Source of the DNA: Escherichia phage vB_EcoM_JQD51
DNA length: 64,000 nt
Direction: 5' to 3' (one strand)
Sequence record: PV204681
A model generated the notes under the pieces. That model made no database searches, was not told the DNA's origin, and saw only the letters and a program-made list of their open reading frames with translations. This document shows, piece by piece, positions 1,378-63,855 of this stretch. Both the position numbers and the translations under genes were made by a program. Numbering within the stretch: the stretch's first letter is position 1; the number at the start of each line of letters is the position of its first letter.

Positions 1378-1548
1378 TTAACCATTCAATTGCCTGGTCG
1401 ACGTTATCAAATATACCGCCGTCCAACCATTCTTCATGTTCATAGTCCAGCACATCAATACCGAACCGTCCATTTACTAAAGGCCATACTACAAACAAAT
1501 ATTCTTTATGCTGTTCGATGGCCTCAATCACTTCATATAATCGTTTCA

Positions 1549-1549
<1 letters not shown>
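1358..1549 (-). CDS. hypothetical protein (63 aa)
   Basis: ORF track; start overlaps pseT stop (TAATG coupling). Confidence 0.45.
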
Positions 1550-2635
<1,086 letters not shown>

Positions 2636-2636
<1 letters not shown>

Positions 2637-2935
2637 TATTTTATTCCTAAGAAAATTTCAAGAATACGAATGTTATGCTCGCGCCGGTCTTTATTAATTT
2701 CAGCAACGTTTTTATTAATTGACGTACTTCTAACGTTTGAAGAAATAAATTTAATCATATGACTTTTGAGTTGTTGCAAATCCAACCCTTTTTCTTTAGC
2801 AGCTTTACGAAGAGCTTTACCTGCTTCATCTAGTGCCTTTGCTGCATCTTTGTCATAATTGCCGAGTGACATTCCACGACAGATATCAATATACTCATCA
2901 GACCGTTTGATGTAATTCTCTAGTAATGTTTTCAT
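2636..2935 (-). CDS. hypothetical protein (99 aa)
   Basis: ORF track; GAGGAAA SD; early promoter immediately upstream. Confidence 0.5.
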
Positions 2936-2963
2936 TTAGATTTCCTCAATTATCCATAGGAGC

Positions 2964-2993
2964 ATTATACTCTGCTCCTGAGAGTTTGTAAAC
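2964..2993 (-). promoter_or_regulatory. early promoter (GTTTAC / TATAAT) within inverted repeat
   Basis: Plus strand attata -N18- gtaaac; -10 sits in IR ggagca...tgctcc; upstream of ORF 2636..2935. Confidence 0.45.
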
Positions 2994-3217
2994 TATTTTA
3001 CTAAAGATTCAATATACTCGTGAAGAGCTTTAGTCGCTACTGCCCACTTATTCTGATATTCATTTTTCAGATTAGCACGAGACTGAACTAACAATCGGTC
3101 ATTAGTCGGAGGCAAAGATTCTAATCGTTGAATCTGGCGCCCATAAATCATAGCCGCCATTTCAGATTCATAGATAAGCCCTTTAATGTATTCATGTTGT
3201 TCTTTAGTCATTGGCAT
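2993..3217 (-). CDS. hypothetical protein (74 aa), pseT.1 position
   Basis: ORF track; GAGGA SD. Confidence 0.5.
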   Translation of the reverse strand: MPMTKEQHEYIKGLIYESEMAAMIYGRQIQRLESLPPTNDRLLVQSRANLKNEYQNKWAVATKALHEYIESLVK

Positions 3218-3498
3218 TTTTCCTCTTTTAAACCACTACGATAATAACATATCATAGTCTTCTGGTCATGTACATATCTTTTTACATCGTTTAACCAGAT
3301 ACGAAATTCTTGAGAGTCTTCAAACGGCATTCCAACCCACGGATTACCATCAATAACCTTTACTTGCCATTTCTGGTTATATTCAACAATAGATTCAGGC
3401 CATGGCGGATGTAAAGTTTCTTTAGGGCTTAAGGGCACATCCTGGGCACATCCAGCCAAAATACTAATAGATAATACAACTGCGGTTAATTTAATCAT
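3208..3498 (-). CDS. outer-membrane spanin (o-spanin lipoprotein), T4 PseT.2 position
   Basis: 96 aa; signal peptide with lipobox ILAGC; ATGA overlap with upstream i-spanin. Confidence 0.7.
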   Translation of the reverse strand: MIKLTAVVLSISILAGCAQDVPLSPKETLHPPWPESIVEYNQKWQVKVIDGNPWVGMPFEDSQEFRIWLNDVKRYVHDQKTMICYYRSGLKEEKCQ

Positions 3499-3851
3499 TC
3501 TGAGAGCTTCCTGAGGTCTTCTGCAAAGGAATCGAAGGACCTGTTGATTTGTTTTTCGACCAATCCTGGTTTACTTGCCACCACGTTCTTCTTCTTCGAA
3601 TCCTTACGGAGCTTTTCATTTTCGGCCTTAAGTTGGTCAACTAAAACACGGTTCTTATAAGTCATTTCTTCGATTGACTGATATTGAACCTTGAAGTCGT
3701 CTAATACTTTAGCATTGTTTTTAGCGGTCTCTTTGACAGAAGCTAATTCAGTATTCAACGAATCAACTTTGTTGTTTAAGACAACTATTGTTACCGTAGA
3801 AACTAGAGCAAAAGCTGCTACTATAGCATAAATCGGATTTACTTTAAGCAT
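3495..3851 (-). CDS. inner-membrane spanin (i-spanin), T4 PseT.3 position
   Basis: 118 aa; N-terminal TM (IYAIVAAFALVSTVTIVVL) followed by charged coiled-coil region; sits directly upstream of the lipoprotein. Confidence 0.7.
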   Translation of the reverse strand: MLKVNPIYAIVAAFALVSTVTIVVLNNKVDSLNTELASVKETAKNNAKVLDDFKVQYQSIEEMTYKNRVLVDQLKAENEKLRKDSKKKNVVASKPGLVEKQINRSFDSFAEDLRKLSE

Positions 3852-4339
3852 GTTTTAATAATCTCAATGATTTCATCTCGGGATAATCCATTGATAAGAA
3901 CGGTTTTCGGACCATCGCACTGGATTTTGTACGATTCAAACAATACACACAACTCTTCTGCTGTATGATATGGACTTGAAATTCCGAGGCGGTTGAATTT
4001 GTCGGTAAGAGGGTCGCAAATAATGTAGAATTTTATACCTGCGATATGTACATTTGGTTGACTAATATTAATGAACACATTAGCGTCATATTTAGTCAAA
4101 TTGTTTTGAAGAAATTCTACCATGGCATTAACTGCTTCTGGCATCGCTTCACGTTTCTCTTCGGCGTAACGTGTTGAATATTCCTTTTGCTTTAACTTCT
4201 TTTTAGCATTTTTCGCTAGAGTAGTACGAAGGTCCGTAAGATAACCAACTGCACGGCCTTTCTTAAAGACCCGGATTCCATCTGTAGAATCACCAAATGC
4301 TGCCACAACCATATCGTTAGTAATCAATTGCATATTCAT
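3839..4339 (-). CDS. alc: Alc, inhibitor of host transcription on cytosine-containing DNA
   Basis: Track ORF 3839..4402 trimmed to internal ATG (MNMQLITNDMVVAAFGDS...) with AGGAGA SD; 166 aa; position between rnlA and spanins as in T4. Confidence 0.7.
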   Translation of the reverse strand: MNMQLITNDMVVAAFGDSTDGIRVFKKGRAVGYLTDLRTTLAKNAKKKLKQKEYSTRYAEEKREAMPEAVNAMVEFLQNNLTKYDANVFINISQPNVHIAGIKFYIICDPLTDKFNRLGISSPYHTAEELCVLFESYKIQCDGPKTVLINGLSRDEIIEIIKTCLK

Positions 4340-4401
4340 AATTTTCTCCTCGTGTTGTTGATAAAAACCATAGTAACACCTTCCTTGGTGTTTGTAAACC
4401 A

Positions 4402-5535
<1,134 letters not shown>

Positions 5536-5554
5536 TCAGTTAGTTTTTTTTTAA

Positions 5555-5584
5555 ATTGTACCACAATCCTTGTGGCATGTAAAC
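5555..5584 (-). promoter_or_regulatory. early promoter for rnlA
   Basis: Plus strand attgta -N18- gtaaac. Confidence 0.45.
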
Positions 5585-5994
5585 TACTTTTTCTTATGTT
5601 GGATATTCCAAGGCGGGTTGAACTTTTTGATAAAAAGCGGTTCTTCAAGGTCCATTGTTGCGATGGTCATTGAACCAAGTTCGTTGGTGACTGAAAGGTC
5701 AAAACATTGGCGGGCCCAGAATTCAACCTTTTTGCCTTGCATTAAGGCATCCAAAATCATAAGTGATTTTCTTGAATCTGAAGTCTGGTCTTTTCGATTT
5801 ATGGCTGTTCGATAATAGTTAATGCGTTTCTTTAAATTCTTGGTTTTACCAATATACACAAGTTCGTCATCTATAGCAATAGCGTATATGACATTTTTCT
5901 TATTAGGGACATCAACTGTTTTAATTGTTGCATCTTCTAATAGCTCCAATTCTGTATATTTAATAAAGGAATATTCGGCGGCAATATCTTTCAT
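5584..5994 (-). CDS. denA: endonuclease II (GIY-YIG)
   Basis: 136 aa; GIY-YIG motif (VIYAIAI...LVYIGKTKNLKKRINYY); between rnlA and nrdB as in T4. Confidence 0.8.
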   Translation of the reverse strand: MKDIAAEYSFIKYTELELLEDATIKTVDVPNKKNVIYAIAIDDELVYIGKTKNLKKRINYYRTAINRKDQTSDSRKSLMILDALMQGKKVEFWARQCFDLSVTNELGSMTIATMDLEEPLFIKKFNPPWNIQHKKK

Positions 5995-6002
5995 AATAAA
6001 GT

Positions 6003-6016
6003 GGGACCGAAGTCCC
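6003..6016 (-). other. UUCG-tetraloop stem-loop between nrdB and denA
   Basis: Minus-strand GGGAC-UUCG-GUCCC; no T-run. Confidence 0.4.
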
Positions 6017-6020
6017 GTCC

Positions 6021-7160
6021 TTAGAAATATTTTTTGTATGAATTGATTACATTTTGGTCTACATCATTATCAATTTGTGCGACAAGATAAGAACTGATTT
6101 CAACTTCCTGAGGAGCTGCTTGAACTAAATCAGAGTTCAGATATTCACGAATCCAAGGATACGGATGCTTGGTCGGAGCATCAGTGATTGGGCATGGCAA
6201 ACCACACTGTTTCATACGAGACACAGTCAAGTAATCAACAAAAGCACACATACTCTGCGTATTGATACCTGGGCATGTACCGTCTTTAAAGAGGTGTGCA
6301 GCCCATTCCTTCTCTTGACGGTTAACTTCCATAAAAATGTCAACTGCTTCTTGTTCACATTCTTTAGCAATTTGAACCCACTCATCGCCGTCAATACCAG
6401 ATTGAAGTTGACGAATAATGTACTGAGTACCCTTGAGGTGGAGTTGTTCGTCACGAGCAATGAACTTCATAATCTTTGCATTACCTTCCATAATTTCCAT
6501 ATTTTTATGGAAGTTGAAAGTACATGCAAATGATACGTAAAAACGAATAGCTTCCAGAGCGTTGATTACGTGCAGACAGAGGTAAAGAGAACGCATTAGT
6601 TCGTATTTAGCCTGTTTTACGCCTTCGCTAAACTCGTGATATTCTTCTAAAGCATTCTGGTAAAGGCGAGTCTTGACTAGAACATCATCGTAATATTTAC
6701 CTATTGATTCAGCTCGTTTCATGATTGCTTCGTCTAATACAATTTCATCAAATACCTTAGATGGATCCGTATAAAGATTTCGCATAATATGAGTATACGA
6801 ACGAGAGTGAATAGTTTCACTGAATGTCCATGTTGCAACCCACGTATCTAATGAAGGGTCGGAAATCAGTGCCATAAGTACCGCAGATGGGGCCCTGCCT
6901 TGGATAGAATCTAATAATGATTGATACTTAAGATTGTTTGTAAAGATGTCCTGTTGGAACTGAGGAAGCTTATTGAACTGCGCAGAGTCCAACATCAAGT
7001 TTACCTCTTCTGGGCGCCAAAAAAACGATAATTGCTTTTCGGTCAAATCTTCAAAAACTTTATGGCGTTGAATATCATAACGCGCAATACCAAGACCAGA
7101 ACCAAAGAACATCGGTTCATTCAAAACATCGACTTGTCGTGTGTTAAAAACTGTACTCAT
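6021..7160 (-). CDS. nrdB: ribonucleotide reductase beta subunit (class Ia), intronless
   Basis: 379 aa contiguous ORF; ferritin-like R2 sequence. Confidence 0.95.
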   Translation of the reverse strand: MSTVFNTRQVDVLNEPMFFGSGLGIARYDIQRHKVFEDLTEKQLSFFWRPEEVNLMLDSAQFNKLPQFQQDIFTNNLKYQSLLDSIQGRAPSAVLMALISDPSLDTWVATWTFSETIHSRSYTHIMRNLYTDPSKVFDEIVLDEAIMKRAESIGKYYDDVLVKTRLYQNALEEYHEFSEGVKQAKYELMRSLYLCLHVINALEAIRFYVSFACTFNFHKNMEIMEGNAKIMKFIARDEQLHLKGTQYIIRQLQSGIDGDEWVQIAKECEQEAVDIFMEVNRQEKEWAAHLFKDGTCPGINTQSMCAFVDYLTVSRMKQCGLPCPITDAPTKHPYPWIREYLNSDLVQAAPQEVEISSYLVAQIDNDVDQNVINSYKKYF

Positions 7161-7213
7161 TATATTTTCTCACTTAGTTTAACTCATCCATGAGTAAATT
7201 ATAATCAAAAGTC

Positions 7214-9469
7214 TTAAAGCTTACAAGCAGAACAATCTTCAGCTTTAGGTGTTTCTAATTCATAGTCATCTGTACCTGACCCATCACGAGTGTTATGATA
7301 GTAGAGGTTTTTTCCACCAAAGTACCAGAAGTAAAGCAGATCGTCAAGCATTACCGACATTGGCACTTTACCTTTCTCAAATACCGCAGGGTCATAGTAA
7401 GTATTAGCAGAAGCAGATTGGCACACCCATTTCAACATGATAGCAACTTGGGTCAAATAAGGTTTATTACCTTTCTTAGCAAGTTTCCACGCGTAGTCAT
7501 AAAGACCCACGTTATGTTCGATATTAGGAACAACCTGACGGAAGTTGCCTTCTTTAGATTCTTTAATACTTACTGGACCACGTGGGGGCTCAATCCCATT
7601 TGTAGAGTTCGATACTTGACTGCTTGACTCACAAGGCATGAGTGCAGACAACGTTGAGTTACGAATTCCATGTTCTTTGAGTTCAGCTCGAAGTTCTTCC
7701 CAGTCACAAACGTAGTTTGGAGCTGCGATTTGGTCAATCTTTTTATTGTACCAGTCGATAGGTAATTCGCCTCGAGACCATTTAGTGTCTGAATAATACT
7801 CGCAAGGTCCTTTTTCTTCGGCCAACTTGATTGATGCTCGGATAAGCCCATATTGTAATCTCTCAAACAGTTCATGAGTTAAATCGTTTGCGTCTTCATA
7901 AGAAGCAAAGTTGCTTGCTAACCAAGCTGCATAGTTCGTAACACCAACACCCAGATTACGACGCTTTTTAGCTTTTAAAGCTTCTGGAACCGGATAATCT
8001 TGATAGTCTAACAGGTTATCAAGTGCACGTACTTGTACTTCAGCAAGTTCATTAATTTTATCTTGGTCTTGCCAATCAAATTTATCTAATACAAAAGCAG
8101 ATAATGTGCATAAACCAATTTCAGCATCGGGACCATTCACATCATTAGTTGGAATAGCGATTTCACAACATAAGTTACTCTGACGAATTGGAGCTTTTTC
8201 ACGAATAAATGGTGTGAAGTTGTTAGTGTTATCAACGAACTGAGGATAAATTCGAGCAGTACCAGAACGTTCAGTCATGAACAATTCAAAGAGTTCTAGT
8301 GCTTTGATTCTTTTCTTTCTGATTGTCGGGTCTTTTTCAGCTTTCTCATAAAGCTCACGGAATTTATCTTGATCTTCAAAGAATGAGTAGTATAGTTCGC
8401 CTGACATTTCGTGAGGGCTAAATAAAGTAATATAATCATTTTTACCAAGGCGTTCCATCATAAGGTCATTAATCTGAATTCCGTAGTCCATATGTCGAAT
8501 ACGGTTTTCATCCACGCCTTTGTTATTTTTCAGAACTAATAGGTTCTCTACTTCTAAGTGCCACATCGGATAATACGCTGTAGCAGCACCACCACGAATA
8601 CCACCTTGAGAACAAGATTTTACTGCAGTTTGGAAATGTTTCCAGAACGGAATAACACCCGTATGTCGAACTTCGCCCATACCGATCTTAGAACCTTCTG
8701 CACGAAGCATACCAACGTTGATACCGATACCAGCTCGTTTAGAAATATATTCAATAATTGATGCTGAAGTTTTGTTAATAGATTTTAACGAATCACCTGC
8801 TTCAATAACTACACAACTAGAGAACTGGCGAGTTGGAGTACGAGCACCCGCCATAATTGGGGTTGGCAATGAAACTTGATGAGTAGAAACGGCATCATAA
8901 AAACGAATAATATGTTTCAAACGGTCATGAGTTTCGTCTTGGTGTAAGGCCATACCAATAGCCATGATAGCAAACTGTGGAGTTTCATAAATCTTCCCAG
9001 TTGTTTTATCTTTAACTAGATATTTTTCTTTAAGCTGCATAGCACCGGCATAAGTCAGGTCAAAGTCTCGTTCGTGTTTAATCTGTGAATCGAGATAAAT
9101 GATTTCTTCTGCTGAATATTGAGACAACAGCTCAGGGTCATATTTGCCTTCATTAACACAGTAAGAAATATGGTCGATAAAAGCAGGCGGTTCAAACTGC
9201 CCGTATACATCTTTACGAAGTGCAAACATTAGTCCTTTAGCGGCGACATACTGATAATCAGGTTCTTCGACAGAAATCGAGTTAGCTGCAACTTTAATAC
9301 AAATCTTCTGAATATCTTTGGTGCTCATCCCGTCGACAAGATGGAGTTTAATTTCTTCATATAATTCATATGGGTCAATTTGTGTTCCTTCACATTGCCA
9401 AGTTAAGACTTGAATAATTTTCTGTGCATCAAAATTTTGGGATACCCCACTGCTCTTAGTTACTTGCAT
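7214..9469 (-). CDS. nrdA: ribonucleotide reductase alpha subunit (class Ia)
   Basis: 751 aa; C-terminal CSACKL redox tail; GAGGA SD. Confidence 0.95.
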   Translation of the reverse strand: MQVTKSSGVSQNFDAQKIIQVLTWQCEGTQIDPYELYEEIKLHLVDGMSTKDIQKICIKVAANSISVEEPDYQYVAAKGLMFALRKDVYGQFEPPAFIDHISYCVNEGKYDPELLSQYSAEEIIYLDSQIKHERDFDLTYAGAMQLKEKYLVKDKTTGKIYETPQFAIMAIGMALHQDETHDRLKHIIRFYDAVSTHQVSLPTPIMAGARTPTRQFSSCVVIEAGDSLKSINKTSASIIEYISKRAGIGINVGMLRAEGSKIGMGEVRHTGVIPFWKHFQTAVKSCSQGGIRGGAATAYYPMWHLEVENLLVLKNNKGVDENRIRHMDYGIQINDLMMERLGKNDYITLFSPHEMSGELYYSFFEDQDKFRELYEKAEKDPTIRKKRIKALELFELFMTERSGTARIYPQFVDNTNNFTPFIREKAPIRQSNLCCEIAIPTNDVNGPDAEIGLCTLSAFVLDKFDWQDQDKINELAEVQVRALDNLLDYQDYPVPEALKAKKRRNLGVGVTNYAAWLASNFASYEDANDLTHELFERLQYGLIRASIKLAEEKGPCEYYSDTKWSRGELPIDWYNKKIDQIAAPNYVCDWEELRAELKEHGIRNSTLSALMPCESSSQVSNSTNGIEPPRGPVSIKESKEGNFRQVVPNIEHNVGLYDYAWKLAKKGNKPYLTQVAIMLKWVCQSASANTYYDPAVFEKGKVPMSVMLDDLLYFWYFGGKNLYYHNTRDGSGTDDYELETPKAEDCSACKL

Positions 9470-36317: not shown

Positions 36318-36409
36318 AATATTCTCTTCAGTAGATTCCTAGGGCACTATTACTAAAGACCATATAATCTATCATCTTATGTGTAATAGTGCCTCAGGCG
36401 ATTCAGGAT

Positions 36410-37510
36410 TTACGCTGTGAAGATTTTATCCCACATCGCAACAACTGCATCTCGGTTATACTTCTTCCATACTGCTTCAGCACGTTTAACTCGAGCTTCG
36501 TATGTGTCAGTGAATTCTAATACAGCTTTTGTGTAAAGCGCAACTACTTCTTTCTTAGGAGTAGAGGAATCAATTTCTACACGCACAGTATCTGGGTCGT
36601 ATTCGAATGTCGCATGAGGATAATCCTTAAAAACTAACTGGATTACAGGGACACCTTTAGAGATGGCTTCAATAGAACTATTCTCTACAGTACCTGTGTC
36701 AGGACACGTATTAATAAGCGCTTTAGCTGTTTTAAGACGTTCCATGATTTCACTGTGTGGAGCATCAATAATAACAGGATATTTAGCTGGTGGTGCCCAT
36801 TTACTAGGACAGTATCCTACACCATTTTCGCCTAGTGCTTTAATCGCTTCAAGAGCAACATCAGTACGACGCATTTTAGTGTCATAACGTTGTGCACTAA
36901 TAATCAGATCAGTCGCCGGAAGAACTTCATGTTTCTCATTCAAACAAATAACCGGATAATCTTCGGCTTCAAACAACGGATTTGCTCGCCAATAATCATA
37001 ATCAATTTTGTCAGTCAGACCTGAAGTCATATAACAATATTTGCGTTCAAATTCACGGAAGGCTTTAGTAGGAGCATAACTCTTACCACCATTCTTATGA
37101 ATTTGAATAGTCTGGTCCCAAATTTGAACAATGCCACGAGATACTGGTTCAAATGGTGTTGCCATAAAATTCTTATGAACTTTAGAGAGACCTGCGTCTT
37201 TAATTGCCTGAACGGTTAGTTTAGTCGGTTCCATAGTAACAACAAAATCGTATTCATGGATGCCGGCTAGTTCAACAATCTTACGAGCCATAGTATAACT
37301 CATACCTAGACTGAATTTAGTCAGATGACCAACAGGATGATGATTAACTTTCCAATCACCAAATGTGTCATTATCAAAGCCGATATAATCAATATCAGCA
37401 CCGATGGACACAAGATATTTCAACACATTTAAATGTACTGCTTCAAGGCCACCTTGTACACGGTCAGGATTAAATGGGACTGCACGAGATGGGATAAACA
37501 TAACTTTCAT
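36410..37510 (-). CDS. GT-B fold glycosyltransferase (candidate DNA sugar transferase)
   Basis: 366 aa; N-terminal MKVMFIPSRAVPF...GGLEAVHLNVLKYL and C-terminal TGTVENSSIEAISKGVPVIQ resembling the GT4 E-x7-E donor-binding region; occupies the T4 gene 60/mobA slot. Confidence 0.6.
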   Translation of the reverse strand: MKVMFIPSRAVPFNPDRVQGGLEAVHLNVLKYLVSIGADIDYIGFDNDTFGDWKVNHHPVGHLTKFSLGMSYTMARKIVELAGIHEYDFVVTMEPTKLTVQAIKDAGLSKVHKNFMATPFEPVSRGIVQIWDQTIQIHKNGGKSYAPTKAFREFERKYCYMTSGLTDKIDYDYWRANPLFEAEDYPVICLNEKHEVLPATDLIISAQRYDTKMRRTDVALEAIKALGENGVGYCPSKWAPPAKYPVIIDAPHSEIMERLKTAKALINTCPDTGTVENSSIEAISKGVPVIQLVFKDYPHATFEYDPDTVRVEIDSSTPKKEVVALYTKAVLEFTDTYEARVKRAEAVWKKYNRDAVVAMWDKIFTA

Positions 37511-37514
37511 AATT

Positions 37515-37554
37515 AAGCCTTATTAAAATTAAAATGAAGCTCCCGAAGGAGCTT
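37515..37554 (-). terminator. terminator-like hairpin after gene 39
   Basis: Minus-strand AAGCUCC-UUCG-GGAGCUU then CATTTTAATTTT; overlaps gene 39 stop. Confidence 0.5.
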
Positions 37555-57307: not shown

Positions 57308-57856
57308 TTAACGAGCCCATTTGATAATTTCTGTAATCAAATAATTACGTTCGCTTGCATTAAATCCTATAACTTTGTTAGCACCGTCATGATTAAGTAA
57401 TTGATACGTTTGGATTTTGTTATGAATTGCAAACTCTTCAAAATATGAAATGACTGTATTAAAACCGAATGAAGACAAAGTAATAAGATCGTCTTCAAAA
57501 CTTTCAGTCATTTCGTTACGTGTTAAAATAATTGTGAACACATCATGGTTTTGGCAAAGACGAACATAATCCTGTTCATAAACGTCAAGAACCGAGTCCG
57601 CATCTTGTCGAATACGTCCATAAACCCAGTTACTAATATATCCACGGTCTAACAGATAAATCTTAGTAGGGTCTAAATAATTCAACATCGTTTCGAAACA
57701 GCCAACTTCATTTCGAGACTTAACATCGAAACGTCCATCAACTGTTCGTTTAGGGAAATCAATCTTTACATATCTTTCACTAATTTCCATTATGTCATTA
57801 ATGAAAGTTGTTTTACCAGCATTATCCGGGCCATCTACTAAAATAATTTTAGCCAT
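57308..57856 (-). CDS. P-loop kinase, thymidylate-kinase-like
   Basis: 182 aa; Walker A GPDNAGKTT; DR(G/Y) motif LLDRGYISNWVYG as in TMPK/dNMP kinases; coupled to upstream gene; sits in the T4 beta-gt slot. Confidence 0.6.
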   Translation of the reverse strand: MAKIILVDGPDNAGKTTFINDIMEISERYVKIDFPKRTVDGRFDVKSRNEVGCFETMLNYLDPTKIYLLDRGYISNWVYGRIRQDADSVLDVYEQDYVRLCQNHDVFTIILTRNEMTESFEDDLITLSSFGFNTVISYFEEFAIHNKIQTYQLLNHDGANKVIGFNASERNYLITEIIKWAR

Positions 57857-57857
57857 T

Positions 57858-58757
57858 TTATTCCTCGATTACGACATCTTCATATTTAGGTATATTATAC
57901 GGCGAAGAAATTAAAGCATTAAAGTAGATGAACTCACCAAGACCTGGATGGAATACTTCTTCAGGATTTTCGAAATATTGAATCTTCGGACGTCCTTTAA
58001 GAATTTGATAGTACTCAGTTTTAGTTGGTTTAAAAATTCGAATCAGCGCTTCTTCAGGATACTTATTTCTGTCGAAGCTATTATTTGGATCGGTTATATA
58101 AAGCGGTTGGCCTAATTGAATTGCACATTCAACCACTTGTTCAAAACGATAGCACGGGTCACTAATTCGAAATGGATGAAAAATACCATCTAGATGAATA
58201 GGAGCCAAATCACCTACAAGACGCTGCATGATGGAAGGACGTATAACTTTCTGGGTTACGATAATCTTATTACCATCGGCACCAGCGTTAACCAGCACTT
58301 CCTTTTGACGTTTATTCAACACAGTAGTTTGAAGTGAACGATTAACCGACAACATATCGGTTTTTAAGAATTCGTCAATATAAAAACGTGGTTTATTAGG
58401 GTCTGCAGTGATATTGAAATTGAATTCCACATCAAAAGCGCCGTCATATCCAGTGATATCTGTGATTAGAAAATCACAATCATAATAATCAATTAATGAA
58501 TCAACCACAAATTCATTTTCAGACCAGAAATATTTACGAGTGTTATATGCGTTATCTTTATACCATAATGGAACAAACTTAAATTCTGGGAAAAGACGTT
58601 CACATTCTTTAATATCAGATGCATTACGTGGATATGTAATCACATCACCCGGATTAGCACGGTGCAAATGAAGTTGGAAGTTGCCATCCTTAAGGATAGC
58701 ATACTGTCCAGTTTCATAAGACCGCATACTCAAGATAGGTACGCGGAAAATAGCCAT
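57858..58757 (-). CDS. hypothetical protein (299 aa), candidate DNA-modification enzyme
   Basis: ORF track; TAATG coupling with gene 42; contains a DCD (DxD-like) motif; family not recognised. Confidence 0.5.
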   Translation of the reverse strand: MAIFRVPILSMRSYETGQYAILKDGNFQLHLHRANPGDVITYPRNASDIKECERLFPEFKFVPLWYKDNAYNTRKYFWSENEFVVDSLIDYYDCDFLITDITGYDGAFDVEFNFNITADPNKPRFYIDEFLKTDMLSVNRSLQTTVLNKRQKEVLVNAGADGNKIIVTQKVIRPSIMQRLVGDLAPIHLDGIFHPFRISDPCYRFEQVVECAIQLGQPLYITDPNNSFDRNKYPEEALIRIFKPTKTEYYQILKGRPKIQYFENPEEVFHPGLGEFIYFNALISSPYNIPKYEDVVIEE

Positions 58758-59473
58758 TAGTCAAGGAATCCTTTAACATAATCAAAATCACGTTCAAACA
58801 CATGGGCACTTACCATGGTATGAGTATAATCACCAACTTCTACACCACATTCGTTAGCGATATAATGAAGTAATTTTCCTTGGAGATAAAAATCCAACTG
58901 CATAACAACAGCACAGTTCTGAGAACGCATATGACAGTGGGTATAAAGCTTACCATCACGAATATAATAAGTCACTGAGTCAGTACATGGATATTCAAGC
59001 GTTTCGTCTGAATCAAGCAAAGCCTGATCAGAACTTTCTAGAATTTGGAACACAACTCTTCGAGAGTTAGGCTTCTCTTTAAGTTCTTTTAGAAGAGCTG
59101 GTAATTGGGCCACAATGCGAGGACCATAGAAAGTGTTGAAGTTCGCCGGCAAAACATCTGATTTTGGTTTAGAAATAAATTTAGCGACATTAGGATATGC
59201 CTTAAACGCTTCTTCTGCGTTGGTACCACCAGAAATCATAAACTTCCAGAAGTCTTCGGCATATTCATAAGAGATGCGGTTAATACGTGGGTCAGTCATT
59301 TTGAATGATGACGGAGTGTCAACAACTACTGTCATAGACCCAATTTCATTACAACGTCCAATACGAGAATCAGTTACGAATTCCGGGTTTTCTAAAATTT
59401 CACGATTGACTGCTTTAAATGCGGTTTGAAAATCTGCGGCTTTGATATATTTCATTGTGTTATGTTTTCCCAT
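58757..59473 (-). CDS. 42: dCMP hydroxymethylase (thymidylate synthase family)
   Basis: 238 aa; catalytic-Cys motif YPCTDSVTYYIRD aligns with T4 gp42 FMCTNTVQYLIRD; Asp in the specificity position (QLD, cf. T4 RND) implies cytosine substrate; GAGGT SD. Confidence 0.8.
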   Translation of the reverse strand: MGKHNTMKYIKAADFQTAFKAVNREILENPEFVTDSRIGRCNEIGSMTVVVDTPSSFKMTDPRINRISYEYAEDFWKFMISGGTNAEEAFKAYPNVAKFISKPKSDVLPANFNTFYGPRIVAQLPALLKELKEKPNSRRVVFQILESSDQALLDSDETLEYPCTDSVTYYIRDGKLYTHCHMRSQNCAVVMQLDFYLQGKLLHYIANECGVEVGDYTHTMVSAHVFERDFDYVKGFLD

Positions 59474-59751: not shown

Positions 59752-60912
59752 TCATTCTGGGTACCTCAAAGCGTCGTCAGAGTTAGTTATATCAATAATA
59801 GATATAGAATTTTCTGATAACCCATTTTTAGATAACTGACGTTTATAATATCTTTCACAATATGTACACGTCGTCCCGCAGATTTCATTAGCACAATCGA
59901 AATCTGGATGTTTGAACCACCTTTTTTCTAAAAAGCCATCTAACAAAGAGGTTTCAATATTTACCGTATGTGAAAACTCGGTCTCATTTTCAAGAGTGAA
60001 AATGGTCTCTAAAGGCTTCCACAATTCCAACAAATTACCTTCAAACTTTTCAGAAGCATAAGCTTCAAGAACTTTCAAAATGTAGTCTGTGCTACCTGTA
60101 CGTCCTGAAACTTTGAATTGAGTGATACCAATATCATTATAAAGTTTCAAATCTTGAGGACGAACAAAACGAGTTCTCAACCAGTTAAATGGGTCTGTAT
60201 CACGAGCTTTAATACAGTGCTGCATTGGATACCCATTTAAGGATTTGGCATCATCTACTGTAACATCGGTGCTATGGAAAATATAGCAAGAGTCACGATA
60301 ACTACAATGTGTTGTATACCCTTTACCAGCATTAGAACAGAACTCATTTACAAGAACTTCAAATATTATATTGTTCTTATTACAAAACTCTGCTGCACGC
60401 TTCAGGAAAGAAACTGAACGGTTCTTATGAATTCCGCAGCAGACCTTTTTGATATTATATTGGTCATGCAAGTATTTGATTTGAGTTACAGCATCGACAT
60501 GTAGAATTGTTGAAACTTCAATCTCAATGTCTTTATTGACTTCACGAACAATTTCCATAACAACAGGGTTAGCGATAGTAATACGCCATACGCCTATTGA
60601 CCAAAGATACTGAACATAATCCTGAATAGCTTTCTTCTTCCACTCAACTAGTTCTCTTTTTGAACCAGGATTTATCGTGTTGAGTGTATAGTTAAAGCAA
60701 ATACCTAATTCGTTACAACGTTTAACGTAATCTTCTAACATCTTTTTGTCAACGTCAGGAAGCCTAAAATCAGGTCTGGCTGCTACAAAAGCCATTTCTC
60801 TGGTAGAGCCGTATACTTCGTTTATCAAGCTATTAGGATAAGTTTTATTGAGCTCTACGATTTTATCAAGAAGAGCTAAATCAAAATTCGTTCCGATTTT
60901 AAAGGTATTCAT
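59752..60912 (-). CDS. peptidase U32 family protein (prephenate-dependent hydroxylase family)
   Basis: 386 aa; blocks ANPVVMEIVRE, EIEVSTILHV, Cys-rich EVLVNEFCSNAGKGYTTHCSYRDSC and FKVSGRTGS align with remembered U32 proteins (YegQ/RlhA: DPGLIMLVRE, EIFVHGALCMAYSGRC, LKIEGRTKS). Confidence 0.6.
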   Translation of the reverse strand: MNTFKIGTNFDLALLDKIVELNKTYPNSLINEVYGSTREMAFVAARPDFRLPDVDKKMLEDYVKRCNELGICFNYTLNTINPGSKRELVEWKKKAIQDYVQYLWSIGVWRITIANPVVMEIVREVNKDIEIEVSTILHVDAVTQIKYLHDQYNIKKVCCGIHKNRSVSFLKRAAEFCNKNNIIFEVLVNEFCSNAGKGYTTHCSYRDSCYIFHSTDVTVDDAKSLNGYPMQHCIKARDTDPFNWLRTRFVRPQDLKLYNDIGITQFKVSGRTGSTDYILKVLEAYASEKFEGNLLELWKPLETIFTLENETEFSHTVNIETSLLDGFLEKRWFKHPDFDCANEICGTTCTYCERYYKRQLSKNGLSENSISIIDITNSDDALRYPE

Positions 60913-60966: not shown

Positions 60967-61368
60967 TTATAGATTCGGTTTATATGATTTAAATGTTTCG
61001 AATTCGCCTTTATTCATAAGAGCTTTGAATTCGTCAGGACGCATAGCTTTGTCGTCGATAATCCAATCATATACTGGTTTATGTGTTAGCAAATTATGGT
61101 ACTTCAATCCAATGTTTGCCAAGTTCTGAATCAGACTTGGGAGAATGTCAATTGCTATACGACCAGGACCGACTGACTTCATACCGCGAGCAGTGTAAAG
61201 CGTTATTGTATGCCCTGCATCATATAGGGCATTAATGGCAGACACCATTTCGACGTCTGGTTTGAAGTTCACGTAATCACGATTGTTATTCCATTCCGTG
61301 ATGCAATCATCGACATCAAAACAAAGATTAAGCATGTTTTTTACACGGTGCATTAGATTCGTTCCCAT
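60967..61368 (-). CDS. HAD-superfamily phosphatase (small)
   Basis: 133 aa; motif I FDVDDCIT (DxDx[T/V]), motif II LYTARG, motif III/IV K...IIDDKA; start may be the ATG at 61353 (TAATG overlap). Confidence 0.6.
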   Translation of the reverse strand: MGTNLMHRVKNMLNLCFDVDDCITEWNNNRDYVNFKPDVEMVSAINALYDAGHTITLYTARGMKSVGPGRIAIDILPSLIQNLANIGLKYHNLLTHKPVYDWIIDDKAMRPDEFKALMNKGEFETFKSYKPNL

Positions 61369-63038
61369 TGATGAGTGATATCGCCACCGATTGGACGATA
61401 AGAAACACCAGTTTCTTTATCAGTTAGTACCCATTTACCAGGATTTTTTGTAATCAGAGTAGCCGTTACAGGTTCTGCTACATCATAACTAATAGAGCCG
61501 TCTTGAAGTACACGGCCCATATTACGTAATTGCTTAGTCAGAAGTTCCATACCTTTATAATATGCGGCTACCGCTTTAAGTGGATTATTCTTGAAATAAC
61601 CACCTAATGCAATCCAGATAATTGCTACAGCCAAATGATGATACTCATTAAACGAACTCATCTTTCCATATTTGTAAACTAATGGATTGATGTTAATAGT
61701 CACATTACAAGTTGTTTCATCAATAGTAAACTGTCCCCAGGTCGGATTAGCATTGAATTCATCATAACCTGAAACAGCATAAAGCACTTTAGCTTCATCA
61801 TACAATTTTGGCCCGTAAATCTTGGTTTCACCAAAATATCCACGAGGGTCGATAAACTTGACTTCACCATTATCAGTAATCATAGTATTACTGAAGTTTG
61901 GGTCACCATGAATAACAGAGTACTGTCCCTGAGAACGGTTATGATAACGAATAAGGTGTTCTAAAGCTTGTTTCAGCATTGGCTTCAGACGCCCAATCTT
62001 AGTGTAGTTCACATGTGTGATTTTACCAAATGAATCAATCAATGGTTGAATACTTTCACAACGATCAATAACTTTAGTATAGAATTCTTTAGTGAAATCA
62101 CGACGAACAGTTTCAGGACTTACAAAATAAGTGTCTGTGCTGAATTTCAGTGCATCTAAAATTGCATCAACAATTTGTGGACGAGCAAGACTTGATTTGG
62201 ATTTAATATATTCAAATGCCGGCTTACCTTTAATGCGTTCCATTTCAAAGTTATTTTCATTAACAGAAACTAGCTGAGGAACTGAATCTGATTTCACTTT
62301 AAGATACCATGAAATCTCATCTTTCTGAAGAGCTCGGCCCTGTTCGGTTAATGCGAATTTAGTTACAGTTTCTTCACCAATTTCAACTGCATTAAAACTA
62401 CGATTAAGTTCACGAACTTCATGAGCTTTTTCAAGTTTAGGCATATCACCTAAATCAATTAGATTCATAAGCTCTGATTTATTGAATGCGCTGCCGTAAA
62501 GGAATTCTACGAAATCACGTCCTTTGCAGTATTCATGAATTTCCTCATCAGTAGAACCCATATAGAATTCCCAGTCTTTGAACTGATAAATTCCTACAAC
62601 ATTACCACCTGTTGAACCTACGTTAGTGATATTTTCACCGTCGAAATTATATCGACATTCGTCGCCCTTAACATAGATTGCGTTAACATTCCAAGACCAT
62701 GAACCAAAATCAGGAATAATATCACACCAGTTAACAATTACATTATGGCCGTCTAAATCTTTGTGCAATTTAGCAAGAGCATAAGCAGAACCATATGCTT
62801 CATCAACTGTACGAATAGTCACATTGAACCCTTCTTGCTCACAATAAGCTCGAACGGTTTCAGCAAATTTTGAATGAACTACTACAATAATTTCATCTGC
62901 GCCAAGGTCAGAATAAATTGTATACAAATTGCTCAGAATAGTGTCTTGTTTATAGTTAACAAGCACCTTAGGAATATGATGTGTTATTGGATACAAACGA
63001 GTTGCCAGTCCAGCACCGAGAATAACAGCTTTTTTCAT
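61353..63038 (-). CDS. bifunctional sugar-1-phosphate nucleotidyltransferase / APH-like anomeric sugar kinase
   Basis: 561 aa; N-terminal KKAVILGAGLATRLYPITHHIPKVLV (RmlA/GalU-type G-x-G-T-R-L-x-P-x-T); C-terminal HGDPNFSN...KFIDPRGYFG (HxDxxxxN catalytic loop and D of Mg site as in ChoK/APH/AmgK); GAGGACC SD. Confidence 0.8.
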   Translation of the reverse strand: MKKAVILGAGLATRLYPITHHIPKVLVNYKQDTILSNLYTIYSDLGADEIIVVVHSKFAETVRAYCEQEGFNVTIRTVDEAYGSAYALAKLHKDLDGHNVIVNWCDIIPDFGSWSWNVNAIYVKGDECRYNFDGENITNVGSTGGNVVGIYQFKDWEFYMGSTDEEIHEYCKGRDFVEFLYGSAFNKSELMNLIDLGDMPKLEKAHEVRELNRSFNAVEIGEETVTKFALTEQGRALQKDEISWYLKVKSDSVPQLVSVNENNFEMERIKGKPAFEYIKSKSSLARPQIVDAILDALKFSTDTYFVSPETVRRDFTKEFYTKVIDRCESIQPLIDSFGKITHVNYTKIGRLKPMLKQALEHLIRYHNRSQGQYSVIHGDPNFSNTMITDNGEVKFIDPRGYFGETKIYGPKLYDEAKVLYAVSGYDEFNANPTWGQFTIDETTCNVTININPLVYKYGKMSSFNEYHHLAVAIIWIALGGYFKNNPLKAVAAYYKGMELLTKQLRNMGRVLQDGSISYDVAEPVTATLITKNPGKWVLTDKETGVSYRPIGGDITHQWERI

Positions 63039-63079: not shown

Positions 63080-63223
63080 CTAGTTAAAGCATTCATACTT
63101 TGCTTGTAGTCCAATCATAATCCATCCAATTACAAGTGTTGGAATCATTACTGGAGCCGTTAAGCTCCAGTAGATAGTCATGACAAGCATCAATAGTAAA
63201 AGTCCTATTGTTATTGCTTTCAT
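63080..63223 (-). CDS. small hydrophobic peptide (47 aa)
   Basis: Hand-read: MKAITIGLLLLMLVMTIYWSLTAPVMIPTLVIGWIMIGLQAKYECFN; ATGA overlap with the isomerase stop. Confidence 0.3.
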   Translation of the reverse strand: MKAITIGLLLLMLVMTIYWSLTAPVMIPTLVIGWIMIGLQAKYECFN

Positions 63224-63855
63224 TGTTCGCCTCGTAACATGGCACCTAGTGCGCCGCCAGGGTGGAACTTAAGGAAGTCATTAGAGGTAAATCCACGCTC
63301 AGACGAAAGGTTGATAGCAAACGTATCGATAAGCGCTAACAACAATGTAGTGGACATAGTCGGAGCCAGAGAATTCTCATCAACCTCTACTGCGATGCCT
63401 GTACAGAAAGAGTAATCAAAAAGGGCTTCATTTTCTTGTGGAATGTCTGGGTTACAATGCAACAGAATCTGTTTGACGTTCGGACGAATCATTTTAAGAT
63501 GCTTAGCCACGCCTATCATTTCTTCAGTTTTACCAGAACGACTAATATGAATCAACACATCATTAGGCGCAATGAATCCTGCATCACCGTGAGAATAATG
63601 CCCAGTGTTCAAGTACATACTCGGGATACCGAGTGAAGCAAATGTCTCAGAAGCTTTAGTTGCAATATTAGCATTCTTACCAACACCTGTAATAATTACT
63701 CGGCTTTCATAATTACTAAGTCCCGGACGTCGAAGAGTTTCTAGAATAGCATTATAACGAGCAGGGTTTTGACTAATTACTTTGGCCATATCGGCCAAAG
63801 AAGAAGATTGTTTTATGATTGCGTTAATAGCGATAGTAATAGGAGTAGTTTTCAT
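63220..63855 (-). CDS. SIS-domain sugar-phosphate isomerase, KdsD/KpsF-type arabinose-5-phosphate isomerase (no CBS domains)
   Basis: 211 aa; TGVGKNANIATKASETFASLGIPSMYLNTGHYSHGDAGFIAPNDVLIHISRSGKTEE aligns with the KdsD SIS core (GxGKSGxIGxKxAATFASTG...HGDLG...SxSGE). Confidence 0.8.
   Translation of the reverse strand: MKTTPITIAINAIIKQSSSLADMAKVISQNPARYNAILETLRRPGLSNYESRVIITGVGKNANIATKASETFASLGIPSMYLNTGHYSHGDAGFIAPNDVLIHISRSGKTEEMIGVAKHLKMIRPNVKQILLHCNPDIPQENEALFDYSFCTGIAVEVDENSLAPTMSTTLLLALIDTFAINLSSERGFTSNDFLKFHPGGALGAMLRGEQ

Follow-up and report, generated by a model that had tools for sequence, protein, structure and literature searches.

Between gene 39 and rIIA.1 of Escherichia phage vB_EcoM_JQD51 (sequence record PV204681), in the slot that holds gene 60 and mobA in phage T4, lies an ORF for a 366-aa protein. 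A preliminary description of this DNA, made from its letters, had read the product as a GT-B glycosyltransferase inserted at this site and as a second candidate DNA glycosyltransferase, possibly adding a further sugar or using a different linkage. The locus thus raises the question of whether the gene is a resident or a recent arrival, what fold and relatives its product has, and which sugar it might transfer to which acceptor. We address this in the 64,000-nt stretch of the phage genome that contains the ORF (hereinafter the window), the relevant features of which are collected in Table 1.

Table 1. Features of the 366-aa glycosyltransferase (GT) locus and of the base-modification cluster; positions are those of the window.
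Feature	Position	Strand	Basis or remark
rIIA, 737 aa	33891..36104	-	downstream of the GT gene; RB69 annotation
rIIA.1, 66 aa	36117..36317	-	downstream of the GT gene; RB69 annotation
Inverted repeat, arms 36338-36353 / 36383-36398	36338..36398	.	between GT stop and rIIA.1 start
366-aa glycosyltransferase gene	36410..37510	-	ATG start; proposed beta-arabinosyltransferase 2
Family signature block TGTVENSSIEAISKGVPVIQ, residues 272-291	36638..36697	-	contains E276 and E281
N-terminal beta-strand and GGLE glycine loop (residues 1-21 on), start of the first Rossmann-like domain	37447..37510	-	AF2 model
7-bp hairpin with UUCG loop, then CATTTTAATT; terminator-like or mRNA-stabilising	37537..37554	-	between gene 39 stop and GT start
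Gene 39, DNA topoisomerase II large subunit, unsplit, 605 aa	37553..39370	-	upstream of the GT gene; RB69 annotation
182-aa ORF, RB69 gp45 position, predicted nucleotide kinase	57308..57856	-	position and size; role from PMC13326640 Table 1
First glycosyltransferase, 299 aa, RB69 gp46:47, proposed arabinosyltransferase 1	57858..58757	-	PMC13326640
Thymidylate-synthase homologue, 5-hydroxy-dCMP synthase, RB69 gp48	58757..59473	-	Pfam Thymidylat_synt
Peptidase-U32-like protein, RB69 gp50	59752..60912	-	Pfam PF01136; PMC13326640 Table 1
133-aa ORF, RB69 gp51 / HY126 AfhF position, putative sugar phosphatase	60967..61368	-	position only
Nucleotidyltransferase and kinase, RB69 gp52:53 / HY126 AfhE, makes UDP-arabinofuranose	61353..63038	-	Pfam NTP_transferase; PMC13326640
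SIS-domain arabinose-5-phosphate isomerase, RB69 gp55	63220..63855	-	Pfam SIS; PMC13326640

A resident gene of the Mosigviruses

The ORF adjoins rIIA.1 and an unsplit gene 39 at exactly the coordinates given in the preliminary description, and the slot is indeed that of T4 gene 60/mobA. The order of gene 39, the 366-aa gene, rIIA.1 and rIIA is identical to that in the RB69 annotation, and the RB69 record remarks that in T4 this topoisomerase subunit is split into gp60 and gp39. The word "inserted" is apt relative to T4 only, the gene being a standing part of Mosigvirus genomes and under discussion in print since 2018. Direct repeats flanking the gene were looked for and none were found, and its GC content (0.39) matches that of the neighboring genes; thus, nothing points to its recent arrival by mobile insertion. 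By megablast, 163 phage records match the gene, all from RB69-like (Mosigvirus) coliphages and Shigella phages with 90-99% nucleotide identity, and it is full-length in about 155 Mosigvirus records. The closest nucleotide match in the phage collection reaches only 98.9%, so JQD51 is a different isolate. Between the gene and its RB69 counterpart there are 15 synonymous and 3 non-synonymous codon differences. This synonymous excess, the full-length conservation and the existence of a 99%-identical crystallised protein mean that we are not dealing with a chance ORF. Taken with the neighbor-like GC content, the codon differences further mark it as a conserved and selected resident gene, neither a chance ORF nor a recent insertion.

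The product is no newcomer to the literature either. The RB69 protein ORF003c/gp3 (NP_861693) is 99.2% identical to it at the amino acid level, and a sequence search of the PDB returned a single match, 9iqz/9ir0, with 361 of the 366 residues identical. These entries, released on 2025-07-16, are titled "phage HY126 glycosyltransferase" (9IQZ) and the same "with UDP" (9IR0), and they probably stem from He et al. 2026 (Nat Chem Biol). Hence, the gene is already known: its nomination dates from 2018, its product had been crystallised by 2025, and the assignment as the second arabinosyltransferase followed in 2025-2026.

The 42-nt gap between gene 39 and the 366-aa gene is too short for a separate promoter and holds only the UUCG hairpin, and the latter gene is thus probably co-transcribed with gene 39. 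On the rIIA.1 side, ahead of the ribosome-binding site of rIIA.1, the preliminary description had pointed to an inverted repeat with a 12-bp stem (36342..36393), a length that holds if one G-T pair is counted; the perfect core is of 11 bp (36343-36353/36383-36393), within 16-nt arms that are 88% complementary and separated by a 29-nt spacer. As minus-strand RNA it folds with -28.5 kcal/mol (z = -5.2 against shuffles), and it is 96-100% conserved across 154 Mosigvirus records, a variation too small for covariation. Several identities were considered and set aside: as a terminator it has no T-run after it, as a promoter cassette it has no promoter-like site overlapping it, as a member of a repeat family it occurs but once within the window, and as a known RNA it has no match in Rfam. 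The repeat is probably an mRNA structural element, serving stability or processing, and not part of the enzyme function.

Fold, signature residues and relatives

The AlphaFold (AF2) model of the protein, built on an 11-sequence alignment of the family (single-sequence input gave a pLDDT of 37), has a pLDDT of 90.7 and a pTM of 0.87 and displays alternating beta and alpha elements in two halves. It superposes on 9ir0/9iqz with a TM of 0.95-0.96, and the glycosyltransferase fold on which the preliminary description had staked its reading is thus predicted. A structure search of the PDB yielded 374 matches at E<=0.001, the best 50 of the 374 all being GT-B glycosyltransferases. The next neighbors after 9ir0/9iqz are GT4-type GT-B enzymes, namely BshA, PimA, MshA, WaaG, BGluT (the tetrahydrobiopterin glucosyltransferase) and BA1558, with TM values of 0.60-0.67 and 10-15% identity, while among viral models the nearest outside the family are rhizobiophage glycosyltransferases and a T4-a-gt-like protein ranks 49th. 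The GT-B fold is therefore borne out by a confident model with two Rossmann-like domains and by its GT-B structural neighbors.

Sequence libraries have far less to say about this protein: scans of Pfam (even at E<=10) and NCBIfam gave no match, and its PHROG, 8302, is annotated as "unknown function". Since the family profile, run against PDB sequences, reached nothing beyond 9iqz, the link to GT4 comes from structure and from remote profile matches. A word-indexed homologue search of 5.8 billion clusters retrieved 5, then 10 clusters, and a profile search run exhaustively over 1.84 billion representatives retrieved 26 at E<=1e-3 and 8 at E<=1e-30; the latter search confirms that the family is very small. 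The weak profile matches align from end to end; of ten that were checked against Pfam, eight have Glyco_transf_4 and Glycos_transf_1 domains.

At the N-terminus the model has a strand (residues 2-6), a GGLE loop (20-23) and a helix (21-35), which is the usual GT-B/GT4 start and agrees with the GT-B-like Rossmann opening recognized in the preliminary description. The same cannot be said of the "E-x7-E-like" block TGTVENSSIEAISKGVPVIQ that it had proposed: the glutamates there are E276 and E281, giving E-x4-E, and the canonical position of the first glutamate, 273, is a glycine. A genuine E-x7-E occupies this place of the alignment in two remote GT4 relatives, P0016 and P0018. Within the family, G20, G21, L22, R208 and E276 are invariant, and E281, nearly invariant, lies in a conserved "EAISKGVPV" helix. 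Judged by its place in the alignment, E281 is the GT-B nucleotide-ribose glutamate. G20, R207 and E281 of ORF003c have been noted to have T4 a-gt counterparts, E281 being aligned with E311 of T4 a-gt (PMC6024577). A nucleotide-sugar donor is indicated by the conserved E281 together with the deposition of the 99%-identical HY126 protein with UDP (as given in the entry title). By the strict sequence marks of GT4, the Pfam model and E-x7-E, this enzyme falls outside that family, although it looks GT4-like and presumably works in that way.

The arabinosylation pathway and the proposed second sugar

Thomas et al. 2018 detected arabinose in the DNA of RB69 and, guided by HMM/HHpred comparisons, put ORF003c forward as the arabinosyltransferase; for none of the known glucosyltransferase genes did they identify a homolog in this phage, the relationship of ORF003c to T4 a-gt emerging only at the HMM/HHpred level (PMC6024577). 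According to Lee et al. 2026, RB69 cytosine bears beta-D-Araf-(1->3)-alpha-D-Araf, ether-linked to 5-hydroxycytosine, with mono- and di-arabinosylated forms both present in the DNA, and the modified base arises as 5hodCMP, formed by a thymidylate-synthase homologue of the RB69 gp48 type, for which 5-hydroxy-dCMP synthase activity is reported (PMC13326640). RB69-type DNA has arabinose on 5-hydroxycytosine and neither hmC nor glucose (PMC13326640, PMC13390438). Consequently, the hmC-DNA acceptor envisaged in the preliminary description does not stand, as D-arabinofuranose rather than glucose is ether-linked directly to C5 of 5-hydroxycytosine. Its idea of a further sugar in a different linkage fares better, with the literature proposing a beta-1,3 arabinofuranose on the alpha-linked first arabinose (PMC13326640, PMC13390438). 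In Table 1 of Lee et al., RB69p003 appears as "beta-arabinosyltransferase 2" and gp46:47 as "arabinosyltransferase 1", and the paper words the second-sugar step by RB69 gp3 as "proposed" (PMC13326640). The Mosigviruses Bas46 and Bas47 are both cited as doubly arabinosylated, and Bas46 is cited as becoming sensitive to a defence system when its arabinosyltransferase "Aat" is deleted.

The genes for the 5hodCMP synthase, UDP-arabinose and the first transferase are all present in the same window as the 366-aa gene, in a pathway cluster at 57.3-63.9 kb that adjoins uvsX and lies about 20 kb from that gene. The synthase is near-identical to PDB 9iqc/9ir2/9iqu, and the nucleotidyltransferase protein has kinase-like Pfam matches besides NTP_transferase. 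For the 182-aa ORF, Pfam offers only weak P-loop hints, and for the 133-aa ORF a Pfam scan gave no match. The 299-aa transferase, which is 46% identical to the DLP2 cluster protein ADLP2_045, has neither a Pfam match nor a PDB sequence match, and between it and the 366-aa protein there is no detectable sequence similarity (E = 2.8). The "second candidate" of the preliminary description is hence the second of two unrelated glycosyltransferases in the genome.

Homologues of the 299-aa transferase are found in 348 phage records, including those of Escherichia, Klebsiella, Enterobacter, Serratia, Yersinia, Proteus and Acinetobacter, as compared to 211 records for the 366-aa family, almost all of them Mosigvirus or Acinetobacter phages. 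In Dhakavirus JS10 the cluster comes with the first transferase but without a member of the 366-aa family. The family has one copy in Mosigvirus, whose DNA bears up to two arabinoses, and two in the Acinetobacter DLP-type phages, whose DNA bears up to three (PMC13326640, PMC13390438). The two homologues of DLP2, an Acinetobacter phage, have 42.6% and 40% identity to the 366-aa protein and stand directly at the end of the modification cluster, tying the family to the pathway by gene neighborhood. Between the Acinetobacter paralogues identity is 57%, against 40-43% with the Mosigvirus protein, and they group together in a rough NJ tree; thus, the duplication belongs to their lineage, and the Mosigvirus enzyme is a co-orthologue of the pair. 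Being equidistant from the two, it has an orthology that leaves the step performed unspecified. These distributions fit a universal "first sugar" enzyme with an accessory "extension" family.

Biochemical precedent comes from the same paralogues: given UDP-Araf, purified DLP3 gp76 and gp77 together extend RB69 DNA by a third arabinose, are inactive singly and give product only when combined, and no DLP3 transferase is active alone on 5hoC DNA (PMC13326640).

In light of the above, we propose that the 366-aa ORF probably encodes the chain-extending DNA arabinosyltransferase of the Mosigviruses, catalyzing the second beta-D-arabinofuranose step; the step, the linkage and the DNA acceptor we infer for this enzyme itself, whereas the ORF and its fold, the near-identical protein crystallised with UDP, the chemistry of RB69 DNA and the DNA-directed transfer by the paired Acinetobacter paralogues are established. 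As a soluble GT-B, GT4-like enzyme, it would bind a UDP-sugar in the cleft that its two Rossmann-like domains form, the donor most likely being UDP-arabinofuranose supplied by the phage isomerase, kinase-uridylyltransferase and phosphatase genes at 59.7-63.9 kb. The 299-aa transferase (57858..58757) would first place an alpha-D-arabinofuranose on 5-hydroxycytosine, whereupon the 366-aa enzyme, acting on replicated phage DNA, would transfer a beta-linked D-arabinofuranose to O3 of this first sugar. The predicted product in phage DNA is beta-D-Araf-(1->3)-alpha-D-Araf-O5-dC, which would shield the genome from host nucleases.

The roles of the two transferases could conceivably be reversed, with the 366-aa protein as the primary arabinosyltransferase that adds the first sugar and the 299-aa protein adding the second or doing something else. 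This is in essence the reading of Thomas et al., who picked ORF003c as the only arabinosyltransferase (PMC6024577), and it draws on the want of any sequence-detectable glycosyltransferase signature in the 299-aa protein and on the inactivity of every single DLP3 transferase on 5hoC DNA (PMC13326640). We regard it as improbable. The 299-aa protein is encoded by every cluster-bearing phage, JS10 with its missing 366-aa family included, as well as the Shewanella phage Thanatos, for which mono-arabinosylation and a single syntenic ara-GT are described (PMC13326640), whereas the 366-aa family is confined to the di- and tri-arabinose lineages with a copy number that rises with chain length. The phyletic and copy-number patterns thus argue against the 2018 idea, as does the extension of already arabinosylated DNA by the paralogues of the family (PMC13326640).

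The pairing of DLP3 gp76 with gp77, both members of the family (PMC13326640), also lends some color to the view that the 366-aa protein is active only in a complex, be it a homo-oligomer or an assembly with the first transferase, or that it is mainly a specificity or scaffold partner. To this we assign a comparably small chance, because the Mosigviruses have only one family member and because the protein retains its nucleotide-binding residues (G20/G21, R208, E276, E281) and was crystallised with UDP, as expected of an active enzyme. Nevertheless, given that the DLP3 paralogues worked only as a pair, the picture of a single enzyme performing a single step may be too simple. A non-DNA target, such as a host envelope component, a protein or a small molecule, is most improbable: the closest solved neighbors outside the family (PimA, BshA, MshA, WaaG) do act on lipids, small molecules or LPS and the Mosigvirus gene does lie about 20 kb from the modification cluster, but the Acinetobacter phage homologues are embedded in that cluster and act on DNA in vitro (PMC13326640), the family is found only in phages with the 5hoC-arabinose pathway, and the second arabinose of RB69 needs a second transferase (PMC13326640).

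Returning to the chain-extending arabinosyltransferase that we favor, one might speculate, as a rather doubtful extension, that its GT4-like scaffold performs inverting (beta-forming) chemistry on a duplex-DNA sugar without the first glutamate of E-x7-E, and is active only as an oligomer, the latter being hinted at by the obligate pairing of its Acinetobacter paralogues. If true, this would define a mechanistically unusual GT-B branch, provided that the 2025-2026 papers have not settled the point, and arabinose chain length in T4-like phages could then be predicted simply from the presence or copy number of the family in a genome, by which, for example, Dhakavirus would be predicted to be mono-arabinosylated.

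Arabinosylated 5-hydroxycytosine, a phage DNA hypermodification defined only recently, stops restriction enzymes as well as some CRISPR systems, and is itself targeted by type IV enzymes. The 366-aa gene would decide whether the chain has one sugar or two, which matters for predicting the host defences that an RB69-like therapeutic phage evades. What we add here to the known biology is confined to the supporting phyletic and copy-number pattern.

Comparison with known glycosyltransferases

RB69 ORF003c/gp3 and the HY126 enzyme are for practical purposes the same protein, of 366 aa and about 99% identity, in the same slot and with the same companion pathway genes; the JQD51 version differs from them by 3 (RB69) to 5 (HY126) amino acid substitutions. 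DLP3 gp77/gp76 (ADLP2_047/_048 in DLP2) belong to the same family, with 40-43% full-length identity and the same TGTVE(N/H)xSxEAIS block, and are UDP-Araf users that act on arabinosylated 5hoC DNA (PMC13326640). They differ in being two tandem paralogues inside the cluster of phages with a tri-arabinose chain, as against the single Mosigvirus copy about 20 kb off the cluster.

More distantly, the GT4-type GT-B enzymes, such as BshA (3MBO), PimA (2GEJ), MshA (3C4Q), WaaG and BGluT, share with the 366-aa protein the two-Rossmann architecture, the N-terminal GG loop and the C-terminal "EA..G.PV" nucleotide-binding helix. GT4 enzymes are typically retaining, and the fit of a beta-linked product with such chemistry depends on the anomeric form of the donor. 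Unlike them, the 366-aa protein has no Pfam GT4/GT1 match and lacks the first glutamate of E-x7-E, its proposed acceptor is a sugar on duplex DNA and its proposed product is beta-linked.

The T4 enzymes a-gt (1XV5) and b-gt are likewise phage GT-B proteins that decorate modified cytosine with a UDP-sugar after replication. Their chains in the PDB were reached neither by phmmer nor by the family profile at E<=10, and structurally they are farther from the 366-aa protein than the GT4 enzymes are, with the a-GT-like cyanophage protein in 49th place having a TM of about 0.5. While the T4 enzymes transfer glucose to 5-hydroxymethylcytosine, the 366-aa enzyme is proposed to transfer arabinofuranose to an arabinose already bound to 5-hydroxycytosine.

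The first transferase and the peptidase-U32-like protein

Of the two transferases, the first (the 299-aa proposed arabinosyltransferase 1) is the less understood, and it returned no match in Pfam, NCBIfam or PDB sequences. It is nevertheless conserved, being present in 348 phage records spanning many genera. Its ORF is uninterrupted in the window, whereas it is divided into ORFs 46 and 47 in the RB69 reference, a split that was put down to a sequencing error by the authors of a 2026 paper (PMC13326640). The arabinosyl-5-hydroxycytosine pathway cluster, in which this gene lies, also includes a 386-aa peptidase-U32-like protein, for which the published table offers only a guess, "sugar or heterocycle reductase" (PMC13326640). 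Going by annotation names only, no such protein is named in the clusters of Acinetobacter phage DLP2 and Dhakavirus JS10.

Coordinates of the features discussed, in the window or in the locus of the named phage
Feature	Source	Position	Strand
GT–rIIA.1 intergenic hairpin	window	36338..36398	
GT gene (366-aa family)	window	36410..37510	-
UUCG hairpin	window	37537..37554	-
First transferase	window	57858..58757	-
Peptidase-U32-like protein	window	59752..60912	-
GT gene and 411-nt ORF	Shigella phage JK45 (MK962757.1)	1501-3104	
Compact cluster	Escherichia phage JS10 (NC_012741.1)	3159-7894	

Hairpins flanking the GT gene

The GT gene, which encodes the 366-aa proposed β-arabinosyltransferase 2 (the orthologue of RB69 ORF003c/gp3), is flanked by a hairpin on either side. 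The one between it and rIIA.1 has a folding z of -5.2 and shows 96–100% identity across 154 records, a conservation at least equal to that of the coding sequence around it; no Rfam family matches it, and a terminator tail is absent. On the other side, the stop codon of gene 39 is directly followed by a second hairpin, which lies 26 nt from the GT start codon. Its perfectly paired 7-bp stem is capped by a UUCG tetraloop, and a T-rich tail comes after it. Possibly, this element functions as an attenuating terminator or a stabiliser, setting the expression of the GT relative to that of gene 39.

Possibly duplicated or broken copies and doubtful labels

In Shigella phage JK45 the complete GT gene is followed by a 411-nt ORF, whose 136-aa product matches the C-terminal part of the GT with 100% identity over 129 aligned residues. 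This arrangement is a tandem duplication of about 0.5 kb comprising the 3′ end of the GT gene and the intergenic region, which could be either genuine or an assembly artefact. The JK45 record is labelled Tequatrovirus, yet contains Mosigvirus-type genes. The taxonomic label of OZ038340.1 ("Tegunavirus sp. BRC001") looks doubtful: it has two copies of the family at 42.8% identity, a level typical of Acinetobacter phages. In Escherichia phage LH01 (PP434429.1), the GT match is split over two annotated hypothetical proteins. A natural knockout could account for this, as could a frameshift that is a sequencing error; should the break be real, only mono-arabinosylated DNA would be expected in this phage.

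The compact cluster of Dhakavirus JS10

In JS10 the cluster is compact: besides the first transferase, it codes for a thymidylate-synthase homologue, a kinase, an isomerase and a large bifunctional protein. Neither the family search of phage records nor the cluster locus showed a member of the 366-aa family in JS10. Thus, the presence of the first transferase without the 366-aa family predicts that JS10 cytosines carry a single sugar.
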